From positions 1 to 64,000 of the forward strand of contig JBFXJJ010000001.1 of the NCBI GenBank assembly GCA_050175015.1: DNA of 64,000 nt, in the 5' to 3' direction. The DNA is from Alphaproteobacteria bacterium. GTDB taxonomy: Bacteria; Pseudomonadota; Alphaproteobacteria; JBFXJJ01. Shown piece after piece: positions 14,448 through 60,066 of the stretch (position 1 is its first letter; every line of letters begins with the position of its first letter). Under the pieces are notes generated by a model. The model had not been told where the DNA came from, made no database searches, and worked only from the letters and a program-made list of their open reading frames with translations. A program made the translations under genes and the position numbers.

Positions 14448-17400
14448 CTATGCTTGTTTTTTATCCATTATGAGATATGGCTCTTCAGTATCACCATCAC
14501 TATCAAAATCTAAAATTGATGGTTCCTCTAAAGATGAAACCTTTTTCTCTATCTTTTTATTTTTAATTTGATAAACCTTTTTATCTAAACTAACAATATT
14601 AGGATTAACAGCTATATATATAGTGTTGTCATCAACAGGGTCATTATTATCTCTTGATGAATAAGGATCTAAAGTATTTGTCTCCAAATTATTTTTATCC
14701 TTCTTAGTTAAATTCATTAATAATATATTTGATGAATATGGGTCTTGCTCATCTTCATCAACAACCTTAGTTTTTCTAAGCTTTTCGCCTAAAGCATTAA
14801 GTTTCACTGATGCAATTTTTGGTACCGAAAATTTAGTATGCTTTTCAGGAGTACTTTCTATAACTTCTTCTTTTGCCACAGAATAGGGATTAAGATAGGT
14901 TTCATCTTCCCAGAAAATGTTATCTATAGAAATCACTGGTTCTTCTTCATAAGAATATTCTTCCTCAACCAAAGCGTCTGACGTCTCTTCTGAATATTCC
15001 TCTTCTATAGAACCATTAGAACTTGTTTCCTCAACTTCTTCGTAATAATAGCCTTCCTCTTCAGAATTCTCGGCACTAACTTCTTCACCTTCTTCGTAAT
15101 AGTATTCTTCTGCGGGATATTCGGAATCTGCCTCACCTGCTTCTTCGTAGTAGTATCCTTCCTCTTCAGAATTCTCAGCTACGGCTTCCTCTCCTTCTTC
15201 GTAATAATACTCTTCTTCCTCTGGATATTCAGAATCTGTTGCCTCGGCTTCTTCGTAATAATAGCCTTCCTCTTCGGGATATTCCTCTTCAATGTTTATA
15301 GCGTTTTCAAATTTTTGCTTAAGTTTTTCATAAAGCATTCTTTCGGCGGTTTCCCTATCATATCCCGCCGTTTCAGTTTGTTCGCCAATATATTCGTTAA
15401 TTAAGTCATCTTCCGAATATTCTTCATATTCTGGATACTCCTCATAACCCTCTTCGGCATAAACACCTTCTTCACTGGCTACTTCTTCATAATCTTCAAC
15501 TGGAGTTTCTTCTGCGTAGCCTTCTTCGCTGTACGTCTCTTCTTCGGTATAACCTTCTTCCGTATAGCCTTCGGCATATCCGCCCTCTGTTGCGGGATAA
15601 TCTTCATAACCCTCAGCGGGATATTCCTCAGTATATTCTTCCCCGCCGTATTCCTCAGTATAGTCTTCGCTATATTCGGCGGTAGCCTCTGGTGCGGTCT
15701 CTTCAGTATATTCCCCTGTTTCCTCTACATATTCTGGAGTTTCTCCTTCAGCATATTCTTCCGCATACTCTTCATATTCTGGATACTCCTCATAACCCTC
15801 TTCGGCATAAACACCTTCTTCACTGGCTGCTTCTTCATAATCTTCAACTGGGGTTTCTTCTGTGTAGCCTTCTTCGCTGTACGCATCTTCTTCGGTATAA
15901 CCTTCTTCCGAATATTCTTCATATTCTGGATACTCCTCATAACCCTCTTCGGCATAAACACCTTCTTCACTGGCTGCTTCTTCATAATCTTCAACTGGGG
16001 TTTCTTCTGTGTAGCCTTCTTCGCTGTACGTCTCTTCTTCGGTATAACCTTCTTCCGTATAGCCTTCGGCATATCCGCCCTCTGTTGCGGGATAATCTTC
16101 ATAACCCTCAGCGGGATATTCCTCAGTATATTCTTCCCCGCCGTATTCCTCAGTATAGTCTTCGCTATATTCGGCGGTAGCCTCTGGGGCTAGCTCTTCA
16201 GTATATTCTCCTGTTTCCTCTACATATTCTGGAGTTTCTCCTTCAGCGTATTCTTCCGAATATTCTTCATATTCTGGATACTCCTCATAACCCTCTTCGG
16301 CATAAACACCTTCTTCACTGGCTGCTTCTTCATAATCTTCAACTGGAGTTTCTTCTGCGTAGCCTTCTTCGCTGTACGCATCTTCTTCGGTATAACCTTC
16401 TTCTGTTGCTGGATATTCCTCAGTATACTCTTCCCCGCCATATTCCTCGGCATAGTCTCCGCTATATTCCTCTAACGATGTTTCGGGAGCATCTTGGAGC
16501 AGCTCTTTTGCCCGCCCTATAATATACTGCTCATCAAACTCTATAGGTACTTCTAGCTGTTGATCATTATATTCTTCATTAAAATCAACAATTCCATCTT
16601 CATATGCTATATTATCAGCACTGGTATTTTCATCTTGAGAATATAATGCTTTGCTAGTTTTTTCCTCTGGTTTTATTCCTGAAAGTTCAATTGCTTTAGC
16701 AATAATAGATGCTTGTTCTTCTAAGCTTACTTCGGAATTCTCTTTGCCCTTAAAAGCGCTTGCTAATGCCTGAATTTGGGCTTCTACTGATTTTCCTTGA
16801 TTCTCCAGAGCGCTAGCCATAGCATGGGCTTGCGCTTCAGCATTCATACCTGACGTTTTTTCTAAAGCATCCGCCAATGCTTTTGCCTGCATCTCTGCCG
16901 TTTTTTGCTGCGCTTCTAAAGCCTTTTCTTGCGTCAGCGCTAAAGCGTCAGCTAAAGCTTTTGCTTGTACCTCTGCTGTTTTATCCGTCTTTTCTAAAAC
17001 ACTCGATAAAGCTTTAGCTTGAGTTTCAGAAAGTTTTTCCTGACTCAAACTCATTGCTTCCGTAATAGCTTTTATTTGAGCATCAGCGGTTTTAGTTGAT
17101 GACTGCTCTAAGGCTCCAGCTAAAATTTTAGCTTGATTCTCTGCTGTTTTCTCTTGCGTTAAAGCTAAGGCATCAGCTAATGCTCTGGTTTGGATTTCGC
17201 CTGATTTTATTTGTGTTTTTTCTAATGCTGCCGAAAGAGCTGCTGCCTGAGCTTCTGCCGTTTGTTCTTGTGTTATTTTTAAAGCTTCAGCCAAAGCCAT
17301 ATTTTGATTTTTAGAATTTTGCTCATACGATTTATTCAGCGCTTCAGCCATTGCAACCGACAAAGCTTCCGCCTGTGTCTGCGCTGTTAAATCCTGCGTT

Positions 17401-18641
17401 TGAGCCAATGCCATAGCCAAAGCTTTTGCTTGAGACTGCAGTGATTTATTTTGAGATTCAGCCAAGGCATCAGCTAAAGATCTTGATGATCTTTCTTGAG
17501 AATCAGCCAAAGCTTTAGCAAGCATCTCAGCTTGAGCCTGAGCCGCATCTTGCTGAGCTTTTGCCGTTTGAATTTGGGTTTCTTTCAAAGCATTTGCAAG
17601 AGCTTTGGCCTGCGCTTCTGCCTGCAAAATAGCTGTATCTTTTTGCGCCGAAGCTAAAGCATCAGCTACAACCCTTGCCATTTGCTCTTGAGTTGTACGC
17701 ATAGCATCAGCTAGCGCTTGAGCTTGAGCCCTAGCGCTAATTTCTGCGGTCTGGGTTTGCGCATCAACCAAAGATCGAACTAAAACTTGATAATCTAAAT
17801 TGCCTCCTGAAGATGCCGGTGCAGCAACAGCTGCTTGAGGTGCTGAGGCAGGTGCAGCTTGAACAGGAGCGGGAGGCAAAGCTTGAGTTGGAGGAGGTGC
17901 TGTCGCTGGCGGAGGAGAATAATATTGCGGAAAAGGAGATTGAATAATCGGCTGCATAATGGTCGGCATTTGCAGCATAGGCATTTTCGAAAACATCGCT
18001 TTTTGATATTCTGCCAAAGAACCTTCGTCCAAAGATTGCACCTCAGCTAAAGCACTTGTCTGTGTTTTTAACATCTCCTGCTGAGCTTTTTGGAGCTGTG
18101 TATTTAATGCCGAAATATCTTTTTGATTGCTGTTGGTTTGTTGAGCGCTGTTTAAGGCTCTCATCAAACTTTCAACCTGCTGCCTTGCAGCTTCTTGTGA
18201 CTGCCGATGAGCCATAGCCAACACTTCAGCCTGCTCTCTAGCTAATGTTCGAGCCTGTTCATATGATTTTTCAGCATTAAGTTCTTGAGCCTTAGTCATA
18301 GCATCAGCAATTACCCTTGCTTGGGCCTTTTCTGCTGCTGTTATTTCTACCTCTTCTTCTTCTTCGCCATTAATCATACCTTTTAAATCGTCAAGATATG
18401 ATTGAACCTCACTGCCTCCTGGAAGCTGGCTAAAGAACTCCCTTACCTCAGGAGAAGCCGCAATCAGCATATCATCATACGCCAACTGCTTCTCTTCACT
18501 GAAGACGTGCATCTGTCTAAAAATATTGATGAATCTTTGGGCTATGACAACAGGTTCTTCTGGCCCGCCTTTATCTCTTTTTGTCGGGTCCCTTATTTTT
18601 TTCTTTTTAATATTGTCACTAGGAGCTAAATTTCCGCTCAT
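14448..18641 (-). CDS. Large repetitive hypothetical protein (Ala/Gln helical repeats and Glu/Tyr acidic repeats)
   Basis: 1397 aa ORF; GGAG SD upstream; no signal peptide or TM segment seen. Confidence 0.85.
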   Translation of the reverse strand: MSGNLAPSDNIKKKKIRDPTKRDKGGPEEPVVIAQRFINIFRQMHVFSEEKQLAYDDMLIAASPEVREFFSQLPGGSEVQSYLDDLKGMINGEEEEEVEITAAEKAQARVIADAMTKAQELNAEKSYEQARTLAREQAEVLAMAHRQSQEAARQQVESLMRALNSAQQTNSNQKDISALNTQLQKAQQEMLKTQTSALAEVQSLDEGSLAEYQKAMFSKMPMLQMPTIMQPIIQSPFPQYYSPPPATAPPPTQALPPAPVQAAPASAPQAAVAAPASSGGNLDYQVLVRSLVDAQTQTAEISARAQAQALADAMRTTQEQMARVVADALASAQKDTAILQAEAQAKALANALKETQIQTAKAQQDAAQAQAEMLAKALADSQERSSRSLADALAESQNKSLQSQAKALAMALAQTQDLTAQTQAEALSVAMAEALNKSYEQNSKNQNMALAEALKITQEQTAEAQAAALSAALEKTQIKSGEIQTRALADALALTQEKTAENQAKILAGALEQSSTKTADAQIKAITEAMSLSQEKLSETQAKALSSVLEKTDKTAEVQAKALADALALTQEKALEAQQKTAEMQAKALADALEKTSGMNAEAQAHAMASALENQGKSVEAQIQALASAFKGKENSEVSLEEQASIIAKAIELSGIKPEEKTSKALYSQDENTSADNIAYEDGIVDFNEEYNDQQLEVPIEFDEQYIIGRAKELLQDAPETSLEEYSGDYAEEYGGEEYTEEYPATEEGYTEEDAYSEEGYAEETPVEDYEEAASEEGVYAEEGYEEYPEYEEYSEEYAEGETPEYVEETGEYTEELAPEATAEYSEDYTEEYGGEEYTEEYPAEGYEDYPATEGGYAEGYTEEGYTEEETYSEEGYTEETPVEDYEEAASEEGVYAEEGYEEYPEYEEYSEEGYTEEDAYSEEGYTEETPVEDYEEAASEEGVYAEEGYEEYPEYEEYAEEYAEGETPEYVEETGEYTEETAPEATAEYSEDYTEEYGGEEYTEEYPAEGYEDYPATEGGYAEGYTEEGYTEEETYSEEGYAEETPVEDYEEVASEEGVYAEEGYEEYPEYEEYSEDDLINEYIGEQTETAGYDRETAERMLYEKLKQKFENAINIEEEYPEEEGYYYEEAEATDSEYPEEEEYYYEEGEEAVAENSEEEGYYYEEAGEADSEYPAEEYYYEEGEEVSAENSEEEGYYYEEVEETSSNGSIEEEYSEETSDALVEEEYSYEEEPVISIDNIFWEDETYLNPYSVAKEEVIESTPEKHTKFSVPKIASVKLNALGEKLRKTKVVDEDEQDPYSSNILLMNLTKKDKNNLETNTLDPYSSRDNNDPVDDNTIYIAVNPNIVSLDKKVYQIKNKKIEKKVSSLEEPSILDFDSDGDTEEPYLIMDKKQA
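15410..16400. repeat. Near-perfect 495-bp tandem duplication containing nested ~147-bp units
   Basis: ttccgaatat recurs at 15411 and 15906; protein architecture (X-Y-X)x2. Confidence 0.92.
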
Positions 18642-47433: not shown

Positions 47434-50400
47434 CTATTCTCTAAGAGTATCAATAATACGAGTCATCTTAGATTTAATGCGATTGTATCTTTCCTCAGAG
47501 AGATCATCAATAGCCACAGGCTGCAGCCTATCAGTATCGATGGTTCCGTCTGATGTTGATACACCATCACGATCGATTGAATCTACACAGGTATTAGTGT
47601 AAGGATTCCAAATCTTATCGTTAGAACATACACAAGTTCCACTGCTGTAGCTTGCTCCACTTGGACAATCTTTACATTCACCATTGTACCAAATTTGGTT
47701 CATACCACAGTCTACTGTATCAGCTGTCTTACATTCGCCATTTTGGCAAATATTAGATGAACAATGTCTGTTTTCTAAACATTCAAGACATTCAGAACCA
47801 CTCCAATAAGGCGTCTCTGAAGGACAGCACTTATTATCGCTACGACATTGCCTAATACCTGAGCAGTGACTGTTTGTGTAACATTCAATACAACCAGCCT
47901 GATCGCCAGTACATTCTACACACTCATAGTTAGAATTACACATCATTCCCGGAGTATCACAAGTTCCAGTATGTCCGCTAGTACCTGTACAAGGTTTACA
48001 TGCATTATTCTTCCAATAAGGTGTATATGATCCACAGCAAGAACCAGCATTAGTACCTGAAGTTTGGCACTGTTGGACACCAGAGCAAGCCGCATCACTA
48101 TATGAGCAAGAATTAGCTCCAGTAGCTAGATTACATGAGCCTGTACAGCATGAGTTAGTATTAACACAAGCGCCATTTCCATCTGGTTTCTGACTAGATC
48201 CACAGTTACAAGAACCACAAGCTGACGATGTAGAACATTCTGCACAATACTTAGGATCACCGGTACACTTGAAACCAGCTCCGCAATCACTATCGAAAGT
48301 ACATAAATCAGGGATTTCAACATCTCCGCCATAATTACATTCGTAATTTTCATCGCAGATAACACCTGTTGAAGGACATCCATTCTGACCGCCTGGAGTA
48401 TGGCATTCTGCACAGAAATATTCTCCACTCTGTTTAATACGATAGTATGGTTTATGCGATGGACAAGTGTTGCATGTATTTTGAGCACCATCAGCTGTTG
48501 AACAAATTTGATTACACCTAGTCCAAGCTGTTGTTCTGCTGTCAACCATACCTATTGGGCATCTATATTCTTTAGCACCCTGCGTTGACTGCATACACTG
48601 CCAGCTTGTTCCTATACCTGTACCCCATGTATAACCACAAAGGCCACGACATCCAGGAAGATCATCAGCGCTCTTATTCAAAACAGTATAATTAAACGGA
48701 TAATAATGCCATGAATAAGACGTTCCAACATCTCTAGGAGCAGAACAAGGAACACAACCAGCAAATTTAGGCCAAGTTGTTCCTGTTGGTGTACCCTCTG
48801 TTGCTTCATGATTATGACTATCATGACGCCAGAATGGAGCGTGCGGAGGACATGTACCACAAGTTTTTTCTCCAAAGTGGTCAATAATACCTGCATTAGT
48901 CATATTAATCGTCCATGAAGTATCACACTCAACACATTGACCATTAACGCATTCCAAACCACTTCCGGCACCACAATCATAATTTTCTTTACAGGTTGGT
49001 CCAATCCATTCAAAGTCAACACATTCACCACCGTCAGGGCAGTTACTAAATTCTGTTGAATTTGCTTTGTTACAACAAGTACAGAAATATTGATCTATAG
49101 GACCGGTTGATTTTGATTCCGCCTTCTTACGATAATATGGCTTATAGGAAGGACATGTTTGACATTCTGCCGTTCCTTCTTCGGTAGGACAGAGGTTAAC
49201 ACAGCTTCTCCAAGAATTATCAAAAGGTGTCGGAGGAATAAACCCAATTGGGCAGCGGTACATAATACCATGAGCATTTCTGTCATGAGCATTTCTCTGG
49301 CACTGCCAAGCAACGGTTGCACCACAATATCCGCGACATCCCGGAGTATCATATCTAGAAACATCATTAGGATAGAACGTTGCATGATGCGAACCTCCTG
49401 CTTCACAAGGAGTACAACCACCAGCCGCTGTTCTATAGTAAGGTGAATGAGTTGGACATGATCCACAAACAGATGCCCTAACTGCCGCATTTGTTTCTTC
49501 TGAATAGTGTGCACCAGAAATTGGGACAGATGGACAAGCTACGCATTCTCCAGTATTTGCATCACATTGCTTGCCGCTACCTTCGCCGCAGGCATGGTGA
49601 TTAGCACAAATACATCCACCCTCACCATCTTCTTTAAAGTTTTCTGGACACTTGCCGCAAACGTAGTTTTCATCACATTCTGAACAATATTCACTTGGCT
49701 GACTTGCCGTATGACAAGATGTACAGAAATATTCGCCATTCTGTTTTACGCGGTAGTAAGGTTTTGTTGAAGGACATGTGTTACATATATATTCTTCACC
49801 ATCAGAGATAGGACATATTGTAGCGCACTTGGTCCAAGCACCGGTTCTATTATCAACCATACCAACTGGACACATAGCAATATTAGCACCAGAAGTTATT
49901 TGGTTACATTGCCATTTATCAGAAGGAGAGCTACTTCCCCACGTGTATCCACAAAGACCACGACACCCAGGATAACCATCTGGAGTTTTATAAGGAGAAA
50001 CATCCCATTTGAATGTATGATAATACCAACTATACGCTGTTCCAGTGTTCTTTGGAGCCGAACATGGTACACAGCCTGAGAATTTATCTCTTCCACCGCC
50101 TGTATGATCATCATAACGCCAGAATGGGGCATGAGGAGGACATGTTCCGCAAGTTTTATCTAGAGACTGGTCTATAAATGCACCATTAGTGAAACTAACT
50201 GTCCAAGATGTGCTGCATTCTACACAAGTTCCATCAACACACTCGTAGCCATTTTGAGCACCACAATCATAGTTTTCTGAACAACTCTTTCCTGTGTATT
50301 CAAAATCTTTACAAGTTCCACCATCAGGACAAGTACCACCTTCTGTAGAATCAGACTGCTTACAACAAGTACAGAAGTACTTATCTATTGGTCCCGTTGA

Positions 50401-53400
50401 CCTTTCATCAGTTTTCTTTCTGTAGAATGGTTTATATGAAGGACACGTTGGACATTCGGCACTGCCGTTTGAAAGCGGACATACAGCACCACAATTACGA
50501 CGAACAGTATCAAATGTCGTATCTGGAACGATACCTACAGGACAACGTTCAATTACATCATGGGTTGGTAAACCATAATTATATCTTGAGCAAAGCCAAA
50601 CACCAGTTGCTCCACAATAACCACGGCAACCCATCGGAGTATCTAAACTTGAGAATGAATTAGCGTGGAACCCTGCATAGTAAGAACCACTGGAATCACA
50701 AGCTGTACATCCTATTGCCGAACGGAAGTAAGGTGCATGAGGTGGACACGTTGGACAAATTGACGCTCTAACACCAGCAACAATGTCATGACTATGATGC
50801 GCACCTGATACTATTGTATTAGGACAATCTACACATTCGCCACTAACACACATTTTACCACTACCTTCAATACAAGCATGGTGATTCAAGCAGTAACAAC
50901 CGCCTTCGCCATCATCTCCAAAGTTCTTTGGACAAGACTGACAAACATAATCCTCATCACAATCATCACAGAAAGAGCTTGTTTGATTTGGTGTATGACA
51001 TGACGAACAGAAATATTCACCATTTCTCTTTATTCTGTAATACGGTTTTGTATAAGGACAAGAGTTACAAGTATTAACAGCCCCATCAGATGTCGGACAA
51101 AGAGTATCACATCTTTTCCAAGCGGTTGTTCTAGTATCAACCATACCTATTGGACAACGGTATTCTTTAACTCCAGAATTTAACTGATTACACTGCCAAT
51201 TACTGGTATTTGTAGAACCTCCCCATGTATAGCCACAAAGACCTCTACAACCCTTGGTCTCTTCATAGCTCTTGTTTACATTGTTATAATTAAACGTGTA
51301 ATAATGCCAAGAATATGAGGCCCCTGTATTTTTTGGAGCCGAACAAGGGACACAGCCCGAGAACTTAGTCCAAGGAACGGAAGCTACAGGACTGCCCTGT
51401 CCAACTACATGGAAGTGGTCATCATACCTCCAGAATGGGGCATGAATAGGGCAAGTACCGCAAGTTTGCTCATAGCGTTGATCTATAATTGCAGCATTTG
51501 TGCTATAGACTGTCCAAGTTGTATCACATTCTGTACAGGTACCACTAACACATTCATAGCCACTTTGAGCACCACAATCATAATCCTCAGAACAACTCTT
51601 TCCAATATATTCAAAATCAACACATTCTCCACCATCTGGACAAGTACTTCCAATCGTTGAATTTGCCTGTTTACAACAAGTGCAGAAATATTGATCTACT
51701 GGACCTTTTGAATTTTCTGCTGTTTTTTTACGGAAGAACGGCTTGTATGACGGACAAGTATCACATTCCCCACCAGTTTCTGTAGTATCACATAATGTTG
51801 TACAACTTCTCCAAACAGCATCGAACGGTATTGGGTTCATATAACCAACAGGACAACGTGCCATAATACTATATGAAGTATTTGGATAAGCATAACGTTG
51901 ACACTGCCAATTATTACAATAACCACGACACCCTAAAATTGCACTACCAGGAAAACCATTATAGTAGAAATTGGCCCAATAGGCTCCAGCTGTTGAACAA
52001 GGAGAACATGCTCCTATAGCTGCACGATAGAACGGAGCATATGTTGGACAACTTCCACAGGTAGATGCTCTAACTGTAGCAAGGAGTTCTTGAGAACCTT
52101 CTGAACCTCCAACGTTAGCTGAAGGACAAGCTTCACATTCTCCTGTTGAGAAGTTACATTGCCTACCACTACCTTCACCACAAGCATGATGGCTTATACA
52201 ACGACATTTGCCTGTCCCATCGTCTTCGGTATAATCTGGACAGCCCAAACATACATAGTTTTCATCACAAATACCACAGTAACTACTTGGTGTGCTTGGT
52301 GTATGACACGCTGTACATAAATATTCACCACTTGGCTTCTTACGGTAATATGGCTTGTTATATGGACACGAGTTACAAGTATTACTTTCACCATCAGATG
52401 TTGAACATACCGCACCGCATTTAGTCCAAGCTCCTGTTCTTGCATCAACAATACCAACTGGACAACGAGCTTGCCAAGAACCCTGATTTGATTGCATACA
52501 CTGCCATTTATCAGAAAGTGATGTACTTCCAGAGTAATAGCCGCAAAGACCTCGGCATCCAGGATAGTCATCGGCTGTTTTATATGGGCTTATACCATTG
52601 CTAAATGTCCAAGAATGCCAGTAATATGCCGTTCCTGTGTTCTTTGGAGCCGAACAAGGCACACAACCTGCGAATTTAGACCAACCTCCACCAGTATGGT
52701 CATCATAACGCCAGAATGGAGCATGTATTGGACAAGTTCCACAAGTCTTATCTTGTGATTGATCTATAACAGCACCGTTGTTAAAATTAATAGTCCAAGT
52801 TGTATCACATTCTGTACACTTACCATCAACACATTCATAACCACTTTCAGCACCGCAATCGTAATTTTCTGAACAATCCTTACCGGTATATTCAAAATCC
52901 GTACAAGTACCGCCGTCTGGACAAGTTCCTCCATTAGTACTATTTGCTCGCTTACAACACGTACAGAAATATTGATCTAATGGGCCAGTTGATCTTGCTG
53001 TAGTTTTCTTACGGAAATATGGTTTATGTGGCGGACAAGTATCACATGTACTTGTGTTATCATTTGTTGGACATAAATTAGTACAATTACGTCTTGTAGT
53101 ATCAAACAATAATGGAACATCGTACCCTACTGGACAACGCTCAATTATTCCATGAGTAGATAAACCATGATTATATCTTGAACATACCCAACTACTACAA
53201 TAACCACGGCACCCCACAGGCGTATTTAAAAGCGGGAAAGGATTGCCATGATGAACAGCATAATAAGCTGCACTAGAGTCACAAGGTTGACAACCACCAG
53301 ATCTATAATAAGGAGCATAAGGTGGGCACGTTGGACAAACTGATGCCCTAACTGCAGCAACAGTATCATGCGAATGATTAGCTCCTGATATAACTGTAGA

Positions 53401-56400
53401 TGGACAAGCTACACAAGCACCGTTCACACACATTTTTCCGCTGCCTTCACCACAAGCATGGTGATTAGCACAAAGACAACGACCATTACCATCATCTATG
53501 AAGTTTTCTGGACAACCCAAACACGTATAATCAGCATCACACTCACCACAGAAAGAACTTGGCTGGCTTGGTGTATGACATGACGAACAGAAGTATTCAC
53601 CATTTGGTTTCATACGATAATAGGGAGTTGTAACAGGACAAGAATTACAAGTGTTAGCCTCACCATCATTAGTATCACAAAGAGGACCACACACAGTCCA
53701 AGCTGCTGTTCTCTGATCAACAATGCCTACTGGACAACGATACTCTTTCGCTCCACTATTAAGCTGCATACAAGCCCAGTTACTTCCAGGATATTGACCA
53801 GACTGATAACCACAAATACCACGACAGCCCGGAGAATCATCAGCACTCTTATTTAAAGCAGAGTTATTAAATGGATAATAATGCCAATAAGATGCAGATG
53901 AACCTGTACTCTTAGATGCCGAACATGGGACACAACCAGCAAATTGAGGCCAAGCAGTCCCTGTAGGATTGCCTTCTACAGAAGTATGAGAGTGATCATC
54001 ATAACGCCAGAATGGAGCGTGCGGTGGACATGTTCCACATGTTTTTTCACCAGCATGATCTATGATAGAACCAGTAACCGCGGTTAATGTCCAAGAAGTA
54101 TCACACTCTGTACATTTACCATTAACACATTCGTAGCCACTTTGGGCACCACAATCATAGTTATCTGAGCAATCTTTGCCAGTATATTCAAAGTCTGTAC
54201 AAGTACCACCAGATGGGCAAGTGCCTCCATCTGTAGTATTAGCTTGTTTACAACACGTACAGAAGTACTGATTTATAGGACCTGATGATCTATGATCTGT
54301 TTTCTTACGGAAATATGGTTTATATGACGGACAAGTTCCACAAGATGTAGTATTATCTCCTGTTGGACAAAGTGTTGAACATGCTCTATAAGTCGCGTCA
54401 TATGGATATGGAGGCTGATAACCTACAGGACAACGAGCAATAATATGATGTTGGTTATAGTTCCAAGCATATATAGAACAAATCCAAGCCCCAGCACCAC
54501 CACAGTAACCACGACAACCTAAGATACCTTTAGATGGCATAGCATTCTGCCAAACATTGCCATGATAAGCCGCGCTTGATTCACAAGGTGTACACCCGCC
54601 TGCTCCAGTTCTAAAGAAAGGAGCATATGTTGGGCATGTTCCACAGGTTGAGGCGGCTACACTAGCATTTGTTTCATGAGAACCTGAAGCTCCAGAAACT
54701 GGTACAGATGGACAAGCAACACACTTGCCACTTATACACTGCATACCACTGCCTTCTGAACCACAAGCAAAGTGATCAGTACATGCACAACTACCATCTC
54801 CTGGGTCTTCAAAGTGATCTGGACATGCTGTACACATATAGTTTTCATCACAAGCTCCACAGAACGAGCTTGGTTGATTTGGTGTATGACATGATGAACA
54901 GAAATATTCACCATTTGGTTTTTTACGATAATATGGAGAAACAGCTGGGCACGTATTACATGTATTAGCAGCACCATCTGCAATAGGACATAAAGTATTA
55001 CATACTGTCCAGGCCCCAGTTCTATTATCAACCATACCAACAGGACACATAGCAACATTAGAACCAGATGTTACCTGTAAACACATCCAAGCGCTTTGAG
55101 CTGACTGCCCAACTTGCGCTCCTGCCTGATAGCCGCAAAGACCTCGGCAACCTGGATACCCTTCTGGAGTCTTATAAGGAGAAACGTTCCATGCAAATGT
55201 ATGATAATACCAATAATAACTAGAACCTGTGTTCTTAGGTATGGCACATGGTACGCATCCAGAAAATTTAGTCCAAGGTGTTGCCGCTAAAGGATATCCT
55301 TGACCAACAGCATGGTTATGATCATCATAACGCCAGAATGGGGCATGCGGAGGGCAGGTTCCACAAGTTTTAATGCCAGATTGATCAAGATATGCGCCAT
55401 TAGTAGTAGATACAGTCCAAGAAGTATCACATTCTGTACACTTACCATTAACACACTCATAACCACTTTCTGCACCACATTCATAATTTTCTGTACAATC
55501 CTTAGACCATTCAAAATCTGTACACGTGCCTCCAGACGGACATGCGCCGCCATCGGTAGTATCTGCTTGTCTACAACAAGTACAGAAATATTGTTCAATA
55601 GGACCATTCACGTTTTCTTGAGGTTTTCTACGATAAAAAGGTTTGTATGATGGACACGTTGAACATGTTGCATCATTGTCTCCAAATGGACAAACGGTAT
55701 CACAGTCACGCCAAGTCTGATCAAACGGAGTTGGAGCAATCATACCAACTGGGCAACGAGTCATAATGTAATTAGTATTGATATTATAGGCATATCTACG
55801 ACAAGACCAAGCATTACAATATCCACGGCATCCAGGAATCTTAACATTAGGAAAACCATTTGGATAAATATTTGCCCAATATACTCCAGCCGCAGAACAA
55901 GGTGTACACCCTCCTGCGTCTTTTCTATAGAATGGAGCGTGAGGAGGACAACTTGGACAAGTAGAAGCTATAACTGTTGCATTAGTTTCATGAGAATAGT
56001 CACCACCACTGACAGCAGCAGAAGGACAAGCAACACAATCACCACTTACACACTGCATACCACTGCCTTCAGCACCACATGCAAAATGGTTTATACAACG
56101 GCAGCCACCTTTTCCATCGCTCTCAAAATTTGTAGGACATGTTTGGCATACATATTTTTCATCGCAATCATCACAATATGGGCTACTTGTACTTGGAGTG
56201 TGGCAAGACGTACAGAAATATTCACCACTAGGTTTCTTACGATAATATGGCTTTGTTGCGGGACAAGAATTACAAGTATTGCTTGATCCATCTGTAATTG
56301 GGCAAACTTGACAAGCTGTCCAAGCACTAGTTCTCTTATCAATCATACCTATCGGACAACGAGCCTGCCAAGAGCCTTGATTAGACTGCATACAACTCCA

Positions 56401-57516
56401 ATCACCTCCAGGATAAACTCCTCCTGTATAACCACAAAGACCACGACAACCTGGCAAGTCATCTGCGGCTTTATATGGGCTCACTGTATAATTAAACGTC
56501 CAATAGTGATTATAATATTGATAACCTGTATTTTTTGGTGCAGAACAAGGCACACAGCCTGAAAACTTAGTCCAATTTGTACCTGTTGGATTTCCTGTGG
56601 TTGAGGCATGATTATGATCATCATAACGCCAGAATGGAGCATGAACAGGACAAGTGCCGCAGGTTTTCTGCGTTGTATGGTCAATAATAGAAGCAACACC
56701 ACCTGTAGTAACAGTATTAATTGTCCATGTTGTATCGCATTCTACACATTTATTATCCACACATTCATAGCCTAAACTGTTTTTATCTACACTCATACAA
56801 TCAAAATTGTTGTTACAAGTTTTCGTCCATTCAAAATCTTTACAAATTCCTCCTTCTGGACAAGCTCCATCATCCGTAGAATCAGCTTGACGACAACAAG
56901 TGCAGAAATATTGGTCGACAGGACCTGTAGATTTGGCCTCTGTCTTTTTACGGTAATAAGGTTTATGAGCAGGGCACGTATCACACTCATTACTATTATC
57001 ATCTGTAGGACAAAGCTCTGTACAACTACGCCAAGTAGCATCAAGTAAAGACGGATTCATATAACCAACAGGACAACGGTACATGATGTTATATTGAGGT
57101 CTATAATGTCCATACCTCTGGCATTGCCAAGCAGCCGAAGCACCACAATATCCTCGGCAACCAGGAATTTTATAAGGAGGAACATCATGATAATAATATG
57201 TTGCGTGATAAGAATTTCCAGCTTCACAGGGAGTACAACCACCAGCTCCAGATCTAAAAAACGGGGCATACGTTGGACAGGTTCCACAAACAGATGCTGC
57301 AACAGCTGAGTTTAATTCATGACAATAATGCGCCCCAGAAACAGCCGCCGTTGCACAATTGGTACAAACTCCATCAACACATTCTCTACCACTGCCTTCA
57401 ATACCACAGTCAAAATGGCTAGTGCAGTACGTAGCGTATGAGACATTAGGAGAGCTGACTAAAATGGCACAAAATGTGATACCAAAAGATACTAATATAC
57501 TGATTTTATTGAACAT
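47434..57516 (-). CDS. Giant secreted cysteine-rich tandem-repeat protein (~3360 aa)
   Basis: Uninterrupted 10 kb ORF. An AGGAGA SD precedes the ATG at 57516 (MFNKISILVSFGITFCAILVSSPNVSYA signal peptide). Seven ~430 aa Cys-rich units are followed by a Cys-rich tail. Confidence 0.93.
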   Translation of the reverse strand: MFNKISILVSFGITFCAILVSSPNVSYATYCTSHFDCGIEGSGRECVDGVCTNCATAAVSGAHYCHELNSAVAASVCGTCPTYAPFFRSGAGGCTPCEAGNSYHATYYYHDVPPYKIPGCRGYCGASAAWQCQRYGHYRPQYNIMYRCPVGYMNPSLLDATWRSCTELCPTDDNSNECDTCPAHKPYYRKKTEAKSTGPVDQYFCTCCRQADSTDDGACPEGGICKDFEWTKTCNNNFDCMSVDKNSLGYECVDNKCVECDTTWTINTVTTGGVASIIDHTTQKTCGTCPVHAPFWRYDDHNHASTTGNPTGTNWTKFSGCVPCSAPKNTGYQYYNHYWTFNYTVSPYKAADDLPGCRGLCGYTGGVYPGGDWSCMQSNQGSWQARCPIGMIDKRTSAWTACQVCPITDGSSNTCNSCPATKPYYRKKPSGEYFCTSCHTPSTSSPYCDDCDEKYVCQTCPTNFESDGKGGCRCINHFACGAEGSGMQCVSGDCVACPSAAVSGGDYSHETNATVIASTCPSCPPHAPFYRKDAGGCTPCSAAGVYWANIYPNGFPNVKIPGCRGYCNAWSCRRYAYNINTNYIMTRCPVGMIAPTPFDQTWRDCDTVCPFGDNDATCSTCPSYKPFYRRKPQENVNGPIEQYFCTCCRQADTTDGGACPSGGTCTDFEWSKDCTENYECGAESGYECVNGKCTECDTSWTVSTTNGAYLDQSGIKTCGTCPPHAPFWRYDDHNHAVGQGYPLAATPWTKFSGCVPCAIPKNTGSSYYWYYHTFAWNVSPYKTPEGYPGCRGLCGYQAGAQVGQSAQSAWMCLQVTSGSNVAMCPVGMVDNRTGAWTVCNTLCPIADGAANTCNTCPAVSPYYRKKPNGEYFCSSCHTPNQPSSFCGACDENYMCTACPDHFEDPGDGSCACTDHFACGSEGSGMQCISGKCVACPSVPVSGASGSHETNASVAASTCGTCPTYAPFFRTGAGGCTPCESSAAYHGNVWQNAMPSKGILGCRGYCGGAGAWICSIYAWNYNQHHIIARCPVGYQPPYPYDATYRACSTLCPTGDNTTSCGTCPSYKPYFRKKTDHRSSGPINQYFCTCCKQANTTDGGTCPSGGTCTDFEYTGKDCSDNYDCGAQSGYECVNGKCTECDTSWTLTAVTGSIIDHAGEKTCGTCPPHAPFWRYDDHSHTSVEGNPTGTAWPQFAGCVPCSASKSTGSSASYWHYYPFNNSALNKSADDSPGCRGICGYQSGQYPGSNWACMQLNSGAKEYRCPVGIVDQRTAAWTVCGPLCDTNDGEANTCNSCPVTTPYYRMKPNGEYFCSSCHTPSQPSSFCGECDADYTCLGCPENFIDDGNGRCLCANHHACGEGSGKMCVNGACVACPSTVISGANHSHDTVAAVRASVCPTCPPYAPYYRSGGCQPCDSSAAYYAVHHGNPFPLLNTPVGCRGYCSSWVCSRYNHGLSTHGIIERCPVGYDVPLLFDTTRRNCTNLCPTNDNTSTCDTCPPHKPYFRKKTTARSTGPLDQYFCTCCKRANSTNGGTCPDGGTCTDFEYTGKDCSENYDCGAESGYECVDGKCTECDTTWTINFNNGAVIDQSQDKTCGTCPIHAPFWRYDDHTGGGWSKFAGCVPCSAPKNTGTAYYWHSWTFSNGISPYKTADDYPGCRGLCGYYSGSTSLSDKWQCMQSNQGSWQARCPVGIVDARTGAWTKCGAVCSTSDGESNTCNSCPYNKPYYRKKPSGEYLCTACHTPSTPSSYCGICDENYVCLGCPDYTEDDGTGKCRCISHHACGEGSGRQCNFSTGECEACPSANVGGSEGSQELLATVRASTCGSCPTYAPFYRAAIGACSPCSTAGAYWANFYYNGFPGSAILGCRGYCNNWQCQRYAYPNTSYSIMARCPVGYMNPIPFDAVWRSCTTLCDTTETGGECDTCPSYKPFFRKKTAENSKGPVDQYFCTCCKQANSTIGSTCPDGGECVDFEYIGKSCSEDYDCGAQSGYECVSGTCTECDTTWTVYSTNAAIIDQRYEQTCGTCPIHAPFWRYDDHFHVVGQGSPVASVPWTKFSGCVPCSAPKNTGASYSWHYYTFNYNNVNKSYEETKGCRGLCGYTWGGSTNTSNWQCNQLNSGVKEYRCPIGMVDTRTTAWKRCDTLCPTSDGAVNTCNSCPYTKPYYRIKRNGEYFCSSCHTPNQTSSFCDDCDEDYVCQSCPKNFGDDGEGGCYCLNHHACIEGSGKMCVSGECVDCPNTIVSGAHHSHDIVAGVRASICPTCPPHAPYFRSAIGCTACDSSGSYYAGFHANSFSSLDTPMGCRGYCGATGVWLCSRYNYGLPTHDVIERCPVGIVPDTTFDTVRRNCGAVCPLSNGSAECPTCPSYKPFYRKKTDERSTGPIDKYFCTCCKQSDSTEGGTCPDGGTCKDFEYTGKSCSENYDCGAQNGYECVDGTCVECSTSWTVSFTNGAFIDQSLDKTCGTCPPHAPFWRYDDHTGGGRDKFSGCVPCSAPKNTGTAYSWYYHTFKWDVSPYKTPDGYPGCRGLCGYTWGSSSPSDKWQCNQITSGANIAMCPVGMVDNRTGAWTKCATICPISDGEEYICNTCPSTKPYYRVKQNGEYFCTSCHTASQPSEYCSECDENYVCGKCPENFKEDGEGGCICANHHACGEGSGKQCDANTGECVACPSVPISGAHYSEETNAAVRASVCGSCPTHSPYYRTAAGGCTPCEAGGSHHATFYPNDVSRYDTPGCRGYCGATVAWQCQRNAHDRNAHGIMYRCPIGFIPPTPFDNSWRSCVNLCPTEEGTAECQTCPSYKPYYRKKAESKSTGPIDQYFCTCCNKANSTEFSNCPDGGECVDFEWIGPTCKENYDCGAGSGLECVNGQCVECDTSWTINMTNAGIIDHFGEKTCGTCPPHAPFWRHDSHNHEATEGTPTGTTWPKFAGCVPCSAPRDVGTSYSWHYYPFNYTVLNKSADDLPGCRGLCGYTWGTGIGTSWQCMQSTQGAKEYRCPIGMVDSRTTAWTRCNQICSTADGAQNTCNTCPSHKPYYRIKQSGEYFCAECHTPGGQNGCPSTGVICDENYECNYGGDVEIPDLCTFDSDCGAGFKCTGDPKYCAECSTSSACGSCNCGSSQKPDGNGACVNTNSCCTGSCNLATGANSCSYSDAACSGVQQCQTSGTNAGSCCGSYTPYWKNNACKPCTGTSGHTGTCDTPGMMCNSNYECVECTGDQAGCIECYTNSHCSGIRQCRSDNKCCPSETPYWSGSECLECLENRHCSSNICQNGECKTADTVDCGMNQIWYNGECKDCPSGASYSSGTCVCSNDKIWNPYTNTCVDSIDRDGVSTSDGTIDTDRLQPVAIDDLSEERYNRIKSKMTRIIDTLRE
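48325..57426 (-). repeat. Seven diverged tandem units of ~1.27-1.33 kb
   Basis: Unit starts (minus strand) at 57426, 56097, 54783, 53472, 52200, 50892 and 49608; the DNA motif acgccagaatgg or close variants recurs in each unit. Confidence 0.92.
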
Positions 57517-57758
57517 GTTCTGTTCTCCTAATGCAAGATGTAAAAAACCCATTAAGCTCTTTACACATGGAAACCCTTATCTGTATTTTGCCTTAAAATT
57601 TATCCCAATGCAATTAAAAAAAATGCGCTATTTTTATGAAAATTCTATATTTTTTTTATTTTTATTTAATACAATTTTTTAATTCTGTTTTGTTTCAATC
57701 TGTCTTTTTTTAAAAAATATTCCTTTTTTATAAGACTGCTTTTTTAGAATCTTATGAC

Positions 57759-59174
57759 TTAAATAAAAACCTTTATGTAATCTCTTTCTATTTCTTCATC
57801 ACACAAATCCTCGCCATCTTTAGCAAGCATAAAATCATAAAGACCAAGACCATTAAGCACTCTGAAATAAGCATTGTTATATTTGCCATAAGGCATATTT
57901 TCTGCTAGTTCTGATACAGTTTTATTACTTACATTTTTTAGAACATGGATAGAAGATGGTTCTATTTTTTTGGCTTCTTCCTCTGAATAACGCTTAAAAG
58001 ACTTAGATATAATTTCTTCCCAATCATCAAAATTATCTCCATTATTTTTAGTATCAATAAATCTAAAATAATAGCTCTGCTCATCTTTATCTTTTTTTAC
58101 GTAATCTTTCATCGTTGCTTTCTTAATTTCATACATTATTTCGTTTTTAGAAACGATAAAAAACTCCTCTTTTTTTTCATCTACAAAAACTAATCCTTCT
58201 TGGATATCGTCAAAATTACTTGCAGGTCTTAAATTTTCGGGCAAATTAAATGAAATTCGCAATTCTGGATTCGTGTAAGATTTTCCCTTTAAAAAACCTT
58301 TACCTATTTTATTGCCACAAACCAATCCCTCAATCGCCTCAAAAAACGGTTTTTTGTTCAATTTGAAATCCTCACTCAAAGCGTTAGAACTTTCAATGAT
58401 TGCTTTTTGTATTCTTTCTTTTGTTCTGGGGTGCGTTTCCATAATATCAATTTTATCGGCATCTTTAACTTTGCCGCCGTTCATAACTGCTGCTAATTTG
58501 CTATAAGCATAGAATGTTTCGAAACCTGCAACACTTGCCTCTGGATCATAGCCTGCTTTCGACATATATCTTATTCCCAATTTATCGGCTTCAAACTCTT
58601 GTTTCCTAGTAAATCCTCTTAACAAAACAGATGTTAACGTATCAAGACCATTATCAAACATATCGTTTGTTGTTTGACCATTTCCTGACATCAAAGCCTT
58701 AATGGCAAGTTTAGTGAATTTAGCCCAATAGTATTGAGCGATTGCTTCTGATATATGCCTTGCATTAACATGACCTAGCTCGTGTCCCAAAATACTAGCT
58801 AACTCAGCCTCACTGTTAAGATACGATAAAAGTCCCCGATAAATATAAATATATCCACCAGAAACAGCAAAAGCATTTACATCTGGAGCATCTAAAACAA
58901 AAAAACGATATTTATATTCTTGATTTTCAACGTGTTTTGCTAATTCGTTTCCTATTTTAGTAACATAATTTTGAACTTTTATATTCTCATATTCGCCACC
59001 ATTCTCTTTTAAAACTTGGGCATGATTTTTTTTAGTATCCTCAATGTCATATTTGACGCTTGTTCCGATAAGTGACATTCTACCTGTGGCTATATTTCGA
59101 GCACAACCTGATAAACCCAAAGTTGCACAAGATGCCAGAAACCCTTTACCAAAATTGCGACGGTTTATTTTCAT
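57759..59174 (-). CDS. M48-family zinc metalloprotease, Tat lipoprotein
   Basis: RRNF twin-arginine motif, LSGC lipobox, NAFA, HELGH, QEFEAD, THP. Confidence 0.9.
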   Translation of the reverse strand: MKINRRNFGKGFLASCATLGLSGCARNIATGRMSLIGTSVKYDIEDTKKNHAQVLKENGGEYENIKVQNYVTKIGNELAKHVENQEYKYRFFVLDAPDVNAFAVSGGYIYIYRGLLSYLNSEAELASILGHELGHVNARHISEAIAQYYWAKFTKLAIKALMSGNGQTTNDMFDNGLDTLTSVLLRGFTRKQEFEADKLGIRYMSKAGYDPEASVAGFETFYAYSKLAAVMNGGKVKDADKIDIMETHPRTKERIQKAIIESSNALSEDFKLNKKPFFEAIEGLVCGNKIGKGFLKGKSYTNPELRISFNLPENLRPASNFDDIQEGLVFVDEKKEEFFIVSKNEIMYEIKKATMKDYVKKDKDEQSYYFRFIDTKNNGDNFDDWEEIISKSFKRYSEEEAKKIEPSSIHVLKNVSNKTVSELAENMPYGKYNNAYFRVLNGLGLYDFMLAKDGEDLCDEEIERDYIKVFI

Positions 59175-59992: not shown

Positions 59993-60066
59993 TGGAGCGG
60001 GTGAGGGGAATCGAACCCCCGTATTCAGCTTGGGAAGCTGATGTTCTACCATTGAACTACACCCGC
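59993..60066 (-). tRNA. tRNA-Gly (CCC)
   Basis: Reverse complement GCGGGTGTAGTTCAATGGTAGAACATCAGCTTCCCAAGCTGAATACGGGGGTTCGATTCCCCTCACCCGCTCCA folds as a cloverleaf with anticodon CCC and encoded CCA. Confidence 0.97.

Follow-up and report, generated by a model that had tools for sequence, protein, structure and literature searches.

A giant cysteine-rich repeat protein of an alphaproteobacterium and its relatives with putative invertible 5' elements

The first 64,000 nucleotides (nt) of contig JBFXJJ010000001.1 (the window), from the alphaproteobacterial genome GCA_050175015.1 (2.53 Mb in 49 contigs, 99.4% complete), contain on the minus strand a gene for a cysteine-rich protein of 3,360 amino acids (aa), which we designated the giant protein. 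The gene is intact, native and under purifying selection. It encodes 14 homologous domains followed by a Cys-rich C-terminal module, and it is one of a family whose members in this genome alone number at least 14, namely the giant gene, a paralogue and 12 genes of a GLUG type. We hold with moderate confidence that the giant protein is exported and that, as a member of this family, it serves at the surface or outside the cell in binding or as a coat. A preliminary description of this DNA, which dealt with the giant protein only, was essentially right in what it observed; the C-terminal module, the paralogue and the apparently phase-variable family had been missed.

Repeat architecture and relatives of the giant protein

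A single open frame of 3372 codons (47434..57552, minus strand) runs without a stop through DNA of 35% G+C. The 3372-aa translation contains 362 Cys (10.7% of residues), of which 361 lie in the mature part, and is also rich in Gly, Thr, Ser, Pro and Tyr. Exactly 14 occurrences were counted for each of the motifs C.xCPx[YH][AS]P..R, GCRG[YLI]C and CP[VI]G. Domain boundaries were set by cutting at the recurrent motif C..[NHD][FHY].C, which gave 14 domains that alternate between type A (199-205 aa; 22 Cys, or 23 in A1) and type B (225-240 aa; 24 Cys) and form seven units of 424-443 aa with 46 Cys per unit. Identity is 51-67% among the A copies and 55-69% among the B copies, and the two types are homologous to one another (hhalign probability 99.8%, E 1e-30, 39% identity over 180 columns). 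The seven units of this length, their division into homologous A and B subdomains and a hand count of about 46 Cys per unit had all been put forward in the preliminary description, and were confirmed by the counts and the alignment.

Nucleotide identity among the units was 60-70%, the synonymous rate was saturated (dS about 1.5) and the ratio of nonsynonymous to synonymous rates (dN/dS) of the scaffold was 0.19-0.22. These values indicated that the repeats are old and held by selection, and made an assembly artefact unlikely, since copies this divergent are not expected to collapse. The G+C content of the gene (0.41-0.42) exceeds that of its surroundings (0.31-0.38) because of its amino-acid composition: G+C at second codon positions was 0.577, while at third positions it was 0.224 and matched the 0.227-0.279 of seven neighbouring genes. 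The raised G+C and the lack of homologues elsewhere could have pointed to a non-functional sequence, whether a product of misassembly, contaminating eukaryotic DNA or a pseudogene in decay. We give hardly any credence to that explanation, given the codon usage, the purifying selection, the stop-free frame and the position of the gene, which within a contig of 312 kb is flanked by glnE and a YhdP-like gene in one direction and by gyrB, recF and an M48 peptidase gene in the other.

Database searches returned almost nothing for the A and B domains. Pfam yielded two unrelated matches below the cut-off with the whole protein (16.6 and 13.8 bits) and, with five pieces at E values up to 10, only a GATA (E 0.17) and a TFIIIA zinc finger (E 0.59). 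NCBIfam gave nothing for the units and a single match, TIGR04201, on the C-terminal piece only (E 0.065), and a sequence search of the PDB gave one chance match (E 0.086). A profile of the seven units, run against 1.84 billion representative proteins, retrieved two proteins, each in a single-member cluster: P0003, which is the giant protein itself, and P0004, which has three units and the same C-terminus and is encoded by the paralogue, located at the beginning of contig C11 in the same genome. No relative was confirmed in pattern scans of genome contigs (13 pattern matches) and metagenome contigs (254). A match in G031 (E 1.6e-4; 60 relatives, all of them kin at the class level only) was rejected as spurious because the matched protein is not Cys-rich. 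A protein language-model search with a unit reached a best score of 0.84, under the 0.9 level, with weak leads at 0.77-0.82 to clusters of variant-specific surface proteins (VSPs) and furin-like proteins, and a further lead, also under 0.9, to ELAPOR proteins that resemble tumour necrosis factor receptors (TNFRs); with the C-terminal piece it gave no usable match. Searches of the literature found no paper on such a protein.

AlphaFold2 models were generated for the A+B pair of unit 2 (10-row alignment; mean predicted local distance difference test score (pLDDT) 66.4, predicted template modelling score (pTM) 0.69) and for domain B4 (20-row alignment; mean pLDDT 75.3, pTM 0.74), and both were predicted to consist mostly of short beta-hairpins. 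With these middling-confidence models, Foldseek returned nothing from the PDB at E 0.001 or better, and VIA-align returned none of 48,161 chains at a Z score of 2 or more. The best Foldseek rows, starting from E 0.62 (to 4-1BB) and E 0.40, were to TNF-receptor, complement factor I, R-spondin and EGF-type modules, with R-spondin, TNFR and EGF rows at E above 2. Because neither a family nor a fold was matched, the A/B domain would resemble eukaryotic disulfide-ladder modules in style only. It appears to be a new family with no detectable relative beyond the paralogue in the same genome. The preliminary description had likewise recognised no family for the repeat, and a full-length match to a characterised family was looked for by sequence and by fold and not found.

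A smaller building block was nevertheless recognised within the domains. A short motif, CxxCPxxxP[FY][FYW]R...CxxC, occurs twice in every A or B domain, and the same genome encodes a 631-aa protein, P0014, in which an N-terminal leader resembling that of lipoproteins is accompanied by five such modules of 48 aa in tandem (PYWR modules). With a profile of the P0014 modules, two matches were obtained in each A/B domain (probability 95.8% and 95.5%) and one in the C-terminal region of the giant protein (98.1%). The searches found the module in no other genome except as P0016, an orthologue of P0014. P0014 is the simplest form of the building block, and the A/B domain would be an elaboration of two of these lineage-specific 48-aa modules, with two loops inserted between.

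Aromatic-rich loops

The variability of the loops was assessed as per-column entropy over the seven copies each of A and B, a plot that the preliminary description had proposed. In the A domains, the segment between GCxPC and GCRG had an entropy of 1.43, compared to 0.82 in the rest of the domain, and was the most variable window (rank 1 of 190); its content of Tyr, Trp, His and Phe was 23.5%, compared to 11.4% in the rest. The A segment between WxC and CPVG was similar (entropy 1.40 against 0.82; 23.8% aromatic). In contrast, the B segment between GCxPC and GCRG, with the highest aromatic content (26.5%), was as conserved as its scaffold (0.83 against 0.79; rank 76 of 224), and its pattern Y-[YS]-W-[HY]-Y-x-[TP]-F is kept in all seven units and nearly so in the three units of the paralogue. 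The B segment between WxC and CP varied more than its surroundings (1.08 against 0.79), yet was not aromatic (6.5%). Across the domains, the aromatic-rich loops held 23-27% of these four residues and the remainder 11-13%. Both segments had been described as variable, aromatic loops, which proved correct for the A domains; the aromatic B loop was as invariant as the scaffold, and the other B segment lacked the aromatic residues.

Loop types recur between units (window positions 48301-57426). In the A domains A1 resembles A7, A2 resembles A5 and A4 resembles A6, and the B segment between WxC and CP falls into three types, one in B1 and B4, which are alike, one in B2 and B6, and one in B3, B5 and B7. 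This reassortment of loop types suggests recombination among the repeats and not simple serial duplication. With dS saturated, loop dN/dS was 0.51 in A, compared to 0.22 in the scaffold, and 0.25 in B, none above 1. The domain is thus a fixed scaffold with aromatic-rich insertions, in which fast evolution is confined to the A insertions. No sign was seen of diversification like that of the complementarity-determining regions of antibodies.

These results bear on the proposal of the preliminary description that the giant protein is a multivalent adhesin or receptor array, in which the hypervariable aromatic loops of each unit confer a different specificity, as in antibodies. The rank of the A loop as the most variable window, its higher dN/dS relative to the scaffold and the mosaic combination of A and B loop types among units are in keeping with such an array, but a B-loop pattern kept, or nearly so, throughout ten units of the two proteins, the recurrence of loop types and the failure of any loop to reach a dN/dS of 1 are not. 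We therefore regard an array of different specificities in one chain as doubtful. Under our preferred reading, that of a binding or coat protein, a ligand, most plausibly a polysaccharide, would be bound via the aromatic-rich loops; the conserved B loops would provide many copies of one binding site, to which the A loops would add some diversity. Small disulfide-rich carbohydrate-binding scaffolds with exposed Tyr/Trp-rich segments are represented by hevein (CBM18) and peritrophin (CBM14) domains. The giant protein would have a comparable disulfide-rich scaffold, and it has Tyr/Trp-rich segments but no match above cut-off to these or any other Pfam domains; by this analogy, the alternation of aromatic residues in the B loop would suit a repeated polysaccharide-binding strip.

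Gene family and 5' elements

Members of the family were found by a whole-genome scan for Cys-rich frames. The C-terminal module of the giant protein (about 250 aa, with the signature CG.C.CG[ST]SQ...PYW...GMMCNS.Y.C, 80 invariant columns in alignment A6 and a basic tail) is 66% identical to that of the paralogue and 44-48% identical to those of six proteins of 600-900 aa from the same genome. By tblastn, eight loci carry the module, with E values of 1e-44 to 1e-50 to the six GLUG-type loci, and four relatives came from other sources (P0010, P0012, P0013 and P0015). In the tail, R244, Y245, R247, I248, K249, K251, R254 and I255 of the alignment are invariant, and the tail may have a part in sorting or anchoring. 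Five of the six module-sharing proteins contain, in their N-terminal parts, GLUG motifs together with the region that is N-terminal in M26 IgA1 peptidases, and Pfam matched Glug in five of the seven other Cys-rich open reading frames (ORFs) scanned. The giant protein had no GLUG motif (PF07581) by Pfam and carries the A/B domains in place of the N-terminal GLUG repeat region. Apart from this, proteins of the GLUG/M26-N type (PF07581, PF05342; for example P0005-P0011 and, from metagenomes, P0010, P0012 and P0013) have the same C-terminal module as the giant protein, and the GLUG-type proteins also share its RYxRIKxKMxRI tail, its type of signal peptide and its promoter-like block.

The start of the giant gene was assigned to the second ATG of the frame, at 57516 (M13), which is likely the true start. 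Direct reading of the sequence placed an AGGAG Shine-Dalgarno sequence 8 nt upstream of it. The database form of the protein, P0003 (3360 aa), begins at the same codon, and on these two grounds the coordinates 47434-57516 given in the preliminary description are right. The N-terminal MFNKISILVSFGITFCAILVSSPNVSYA was the sole hydrophobic segment in hydropathy windows over the whole protein. It has the features of a Sec-type signal, namely MFNK, a 17-residue core (Kyte-Doolittle mean up to 2.27) and then S-Y-A, and the family's MF[SN]K... signal-peptide exons are of this type too; downstream, SPNVSYATYC of the giant protein aligns with YPNKGYSQSC of the paralogue. The signal peptide claimed previously is thus supported, as is a transcription unit of its own: the gene is convergent with its downstream gene and is preceded by a 40-nt block (57576-57615), a putative promoter, that aligns with a conserved block preceding the signal-peptide exons of the 11 putative invertible elements described below. 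In an imperfect inverted repeat (57444-57533) the Shine-Dalgarno sequence pairs with the S-P-N codons, and the start codon and the signal-peptide core lie between the arms. The repeat was present in the minimum-free-energy fold of the RNA (z -2.3; 4 of 200 shuffled sequences folded equally well), and it may be a brake on translation, a relic or a chance pairing.

The relatives of the giant gene begin differently. The 12 GLUG-type genes and the paralogue all start with [LI]YPxxGY[SA]Q[TS], which is degenerate in the gene on contig C4. As assembled, all of them lack an ATG and a signal peptide; the GLUG-type genes have stop codons just upstream, and the paralogue starts at a contig end. For 11 of the 12 GLUG-type genes, five of them in loci L012-L016, a perfect inverted copy of the first 12-22 nt of coding sequence was found 544-585 nt upstream; a repeat search confirmed two of the loci (19 nt, 100%, 552 nt between arms; 18 nt, 100%, 567 nt between arms). 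At the distal arm, the opposite strand carries a Shine-Dalgarno sequence, an ATG and a frame encoding MF[SN]K and about 13 hydrophobic residues, which enters the repeat and then stops. In the twelfth gene (C4:91913-93730) two stop codons replace the junction and there is no repeat. The simplest reading is that a promoter and a signal-peptide exon are carried, for each of these 11 genes, on an invertible element of its own, about 560-600 bp long, and that all 11 elements would be in the OFF orientation in the assembly. Two other readings were dropped: a single expression site with silent cassettes, as in Mycoplasma vsa, because each locus has its own signal-peptide exon, and a start of the GLUG-type genes at the [I/L] codon or at an ATG in another frame, because neither is conserved. 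The 330 nt upstream of the GLUG-type genes also contain three TAACATATTGAT boxes that alternate with two GGGTAAC-N4-GGGTAAC boxes (for example at L013:2670-3000), and these boxes, which may be sites for a regulator, an enhancer or a recombinase, are located inside the putative invertible elements.

Contig C11, which carries the paralogue, begins exactly at a 19-nt repeat (L011:1-30). In sequencing run X1, the two ends of a 607-nt assembly record match, respectively, the reverse complement of the first 30 nt of the paralogue and the first 19 nt of that gene, and a 41-nt record, the size of eleven new 31-mers across the 19-nt repeat, joins the paralogue start. The same 19-mer is found beside a distal-type flank on contig C21 (G000:C21:1-130). 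Bases 168-900 of L011, a part of the paralogue, were covered by no assembly contig. We infer that both orientations of the upstream element of the paralogue are present in the sample.

No element of about 560 bp and no long inverted repeat was found at the 5' end of the giant gene, where the best candidates were a 10-nt repeat at -77 and the imperfect 15-nt pair with arms 60 nt apart. The upstream gene ends only 206 nt away. Because the family-type block is present and these 206 nt offer no such element, the giant gene would be a member in which promoter, start and signal peptide have become fused in place, whereas 11 of the 12 GLUG-type genes would have theirs on an invertible element. The giant gene appears to be fixed ON, and its product would be made without an inversion switch. 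In the mba/UU172 elements of Ureaplasma, inversion moves a promoter and an N-terminal part (PMC3047005), and invertons inside genes have likewise been described (PMC10028968). The relatives of the giant gene match these systems in that inverted repeats in the 5' coding region would swap the promoter and N-terminal fusion; they differ from them in having a private ON/OFF element for each gene, in occurring in an alphaproteobacterium, in including a giant member without the element and in that the inversion here is deduced.

Predicted export and surface location, and alternative explanations

In the reading that we prefer, the giant protein would be exported by the Sec pathway as a 3,360-aa protein without a membrane anchor, with 14 disulfide-rich domains, the Cys-rich C-terminal module and the basic tail. 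It would be oxidized by the Dsb system after export to the periplasm and would then pass to the surface by some further route, perhaps guided or held by the C-terminal module and the tail, to form a long, protease-resistant, disulfide-stapled surface or extracellular fibre or coat. The even Cys counts per domain (22 and 24, with 23 in A1) and the presence in the genome of a gene for a DsbA-family protein and of two secretin genes are consistent with this route. The architecture, the homologies, the native codon usage, the purifying selection and the family context were observed in the sequences; export, disulfide formation, surface location and binding are predictions.

A different use of the Cys residues would be in a metal-binding array, with the CxxC...CxxC pairs acting as zinc-ribbon-like sites that sequester or buffer metal. 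A zinc ribbon or GATA-type finger has CxxC-x(11-18)-CxxC and binds one Zn, and each PYWR module, two per A/B domain, has the spacing CxxC-x11-17-CxxC; in the models, beta-hairpins are predicted between the CxxC pairs, B4 has its weak GATA match, and the sample label of the run is landfill metagenome. However, the signal peptide would direct the protein to an oxidizing periplasm in an organism that encodes a DsbA-family protein, the 22 Cys of an A domain are not a multiple of four, many conserved Cys lie outside the CxxC pairs, and no zinc-finger family passed its cut-off. We consider a metal-binding array improbable.

The protein might instead be a coat or structural fibre with no adhesive role, conferring mechanical or protease resistance or masking the cell from phages or grazers, as do the Cys-rich coats of protists. 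The very dense Cys framework, the old units under purifying selection, the apparent phase variation of relatives with other N-terminal parts, which is frequent among surface coats, and the weak language-model leads would fit this explanation. The Giardia VSPs and the ciliate furin-like or immobilisation-antigen repeats (PF03302, PF15913) are indeed similar to the giant protein in their Cys content of about 10%, many CxxC pairs and periodic framework, and the VSPs form a multigene family with switchable expression to which the family described here may be likened. VSPs end in a C-terminal transmembrane helix and a short conserved cytoplasmic tail, yet no hydrophobic window was found in the giant protein outside the signal peptide, and thus no VSP-type tail or membrane anchor. 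Unlike these proteins, the giant protein is bacterial with native codon usage, and it had no match to the hidden Markov models of the VSP, furin-like, GCC2_GCC3 or TNFR families in Pfam scans of the whole protein and five pieces, and, with the middling-confidence models, no fold match at E 0.001 or better. Moreover, a mere coat would have no need of conserved aromatic-rich loops. A purely protective coat is therefore unlikely in our judgement, though not negligibly so.

Giant bacterial adhesins provide the other comparison. The RTX, Bap and LapA adhesins resemble the giant protein in exceeding 3000 aa, in consisting of tandem repeats of one domain and in lacking a membrane anchor. They are Cys-poor, have Ig-like repeats and leave the cell through type I secretion, with no signal peptide at the N-terminus, and the RTX type is marked by nonapeptide repeats, a C-terminal signal and the lack of a Sec signal peptide. 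In contrast, the giant protein has a Sec signal peptide, 10.7% Cys and no Pfam match to RTX (HemolysinCabind) or Ig-like domains. Neither a C-terminal autotransporter beta-barrel nor an N-terminal domain of the two-partner secretion (TPS) type was found in it by Pfam and NCBIfam.

Several observations weigh against our preferred reading and its extension to a switched family. Because Pfam detected no autotransporter, TPS, RTX or sortase-type signal and there is no anchor, the protein could be periplasmic. The zinc-ribbon-like spacing and the GATA match of B4 (E 0.17; 11.9 bits against a cut-off of 26.8) mean that metal sites in place of disulfides are possible. The models are of middling confidence (pLDDT 66 and 75), and the aromatic loops, at pLDDT below 50, do not allow their exposure to be read. 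Inversion was deduced from the sizes and end matches of assembly records and not from reads; the genome scan found no resolvase-family protein or serine invertase, and none of its 17 tyrosine-recombinase matches fell in the 10 flanking ORFs scanned. Lastly, the whole analysis is based on one metagenome-assembled genome.

A bolder form of the preferred reading is that the A/B domain is a new extracellular disulfide-rich fold derived from the lineage-specific 48-aa module and repeated 14 times into a fibre, whose repeated aromatic strip would bind polysaccharide or cell surfaces, and that the giant protein is the constitutive member of a variant-surface system whose other members, at least 11 genes, are each switched by an inverton of their own with a promoter and a signal-peptide exon. 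We offer this only tentatively, as something that could be true but probably is not in full. If it is true, the giant protein would be a bacterial counterpart of the Cys-rich variant coats of protists. Bacterial surface proteins are almost always Cys-poor; giant repeat surface proteins are known as a kind, the Cys density seen here is highly unusual in bacteria, and the inverton-switched relatives would join a known kind of switch. With no relative among about 15 billion predicted proteins, the giant protein would found a domain family not described before and perhaps represent a new fold, and its A/B domain may be a robust disulfide-stapled binding scaffold of practical interest. The family would also be a compact example of phase variation by flipping of a signal-peptide exon, with 11 parallel switches and one relative naturally locked ON, in a deep-branching alphaproteobacterium. 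The features of the giant gene and its relatives are collected in Table 1.

Table 1 Features of the giant gene and its relatives. Coordinates are those of the window unless preceded by a contig (C) or locus (L) of the source genome (G000).
Feature	Coordinates	Strand	Remarks
Unit 1	56098..57426	-	A1 56818-57426 (23 Cys); B1 56098-56817 (24 Cys)
Unit 2	54784..56097	-	A2 55498-56097; B2 54784-55497; modelled as A+B
Unit 3	53473..54783	-	A3 54172-54783; B3 53473-54171
Unit 4	52201..53472	-	A4 52876-53472; B4 52201-52875; B4 modelled singly
Unit 5	50893..52200	-	A5 51595-52200; B5 50893-51594
Unit 6	49609..50892	-	A6 50284-50892; B6 49609-50283
Unit 7	48301..49608	-	A7 48994-49608; B7 48301-48993
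C-terminal Cys-rich module (261 aa)	47437..48219	-	common to the paralogue and six GLUG-type proteins
Conserved basic C-terminal tail EERYNRIKSKMTRIIDTLRE, motif RYxRIKxKxxRI	47437..47496	-	alignment A6
Predicted signal peptide MFNKISILVSFGITFCAILVSSPNVSYA	57433..57516	-	sole hydrophobic window; small residues at -3 and -1
Shine-Dalgarno sequence (AGGAG) and ATG of M13	57514..57530	-	sequence read directly; P0003 starts here
Imperfect inverted repeat (15 nt, 87%; pair I5)	57444-57458 / 57519-57533	-	repeat search
Promoter-like block (TTGCAT ... GCAAAATACAGATAAG)	57576..57615	-	aligns with block 5' of family signal-peptide exons
P0014 gene	L017:3001-4962 (G000:C13:24854-26815)	-	five PYWR modules
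Gene-start codons of the 11 GLUG-type genes with putative switches (G000), part 1	C5:145471(+), C5:172136(-), C6:51258(+), C6:1645(-), C10:87572(+), C11:86934(+)		
Gene-start codons of the 11 GLUG-type genes with putative switches (G000), part 2	C13:8872(+), C17:44314(+), C23:1849(-), C23:4992(-), C27:1567(-)		

Elsewhere in the window, the gene for the M48 peptidase (57759-59174, minus strand) lies on the same strand as the giant gene and is the one that ends 206 nt upstream of its frame; by its length the product may resemble the BepA-type periplasmic protease-chaperones. A 1397-aa ORF at 14448-18641 (minus strand), P0002, had no Pfam match and encodes a long region of repeats rich in Ala and Gln and, after it, highly acidic repeats rich in Glu and Tyr. 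The only tRNA gene of the window, for tRNA-Gly (CCC), is located at 59993-60066 on the minus strand.

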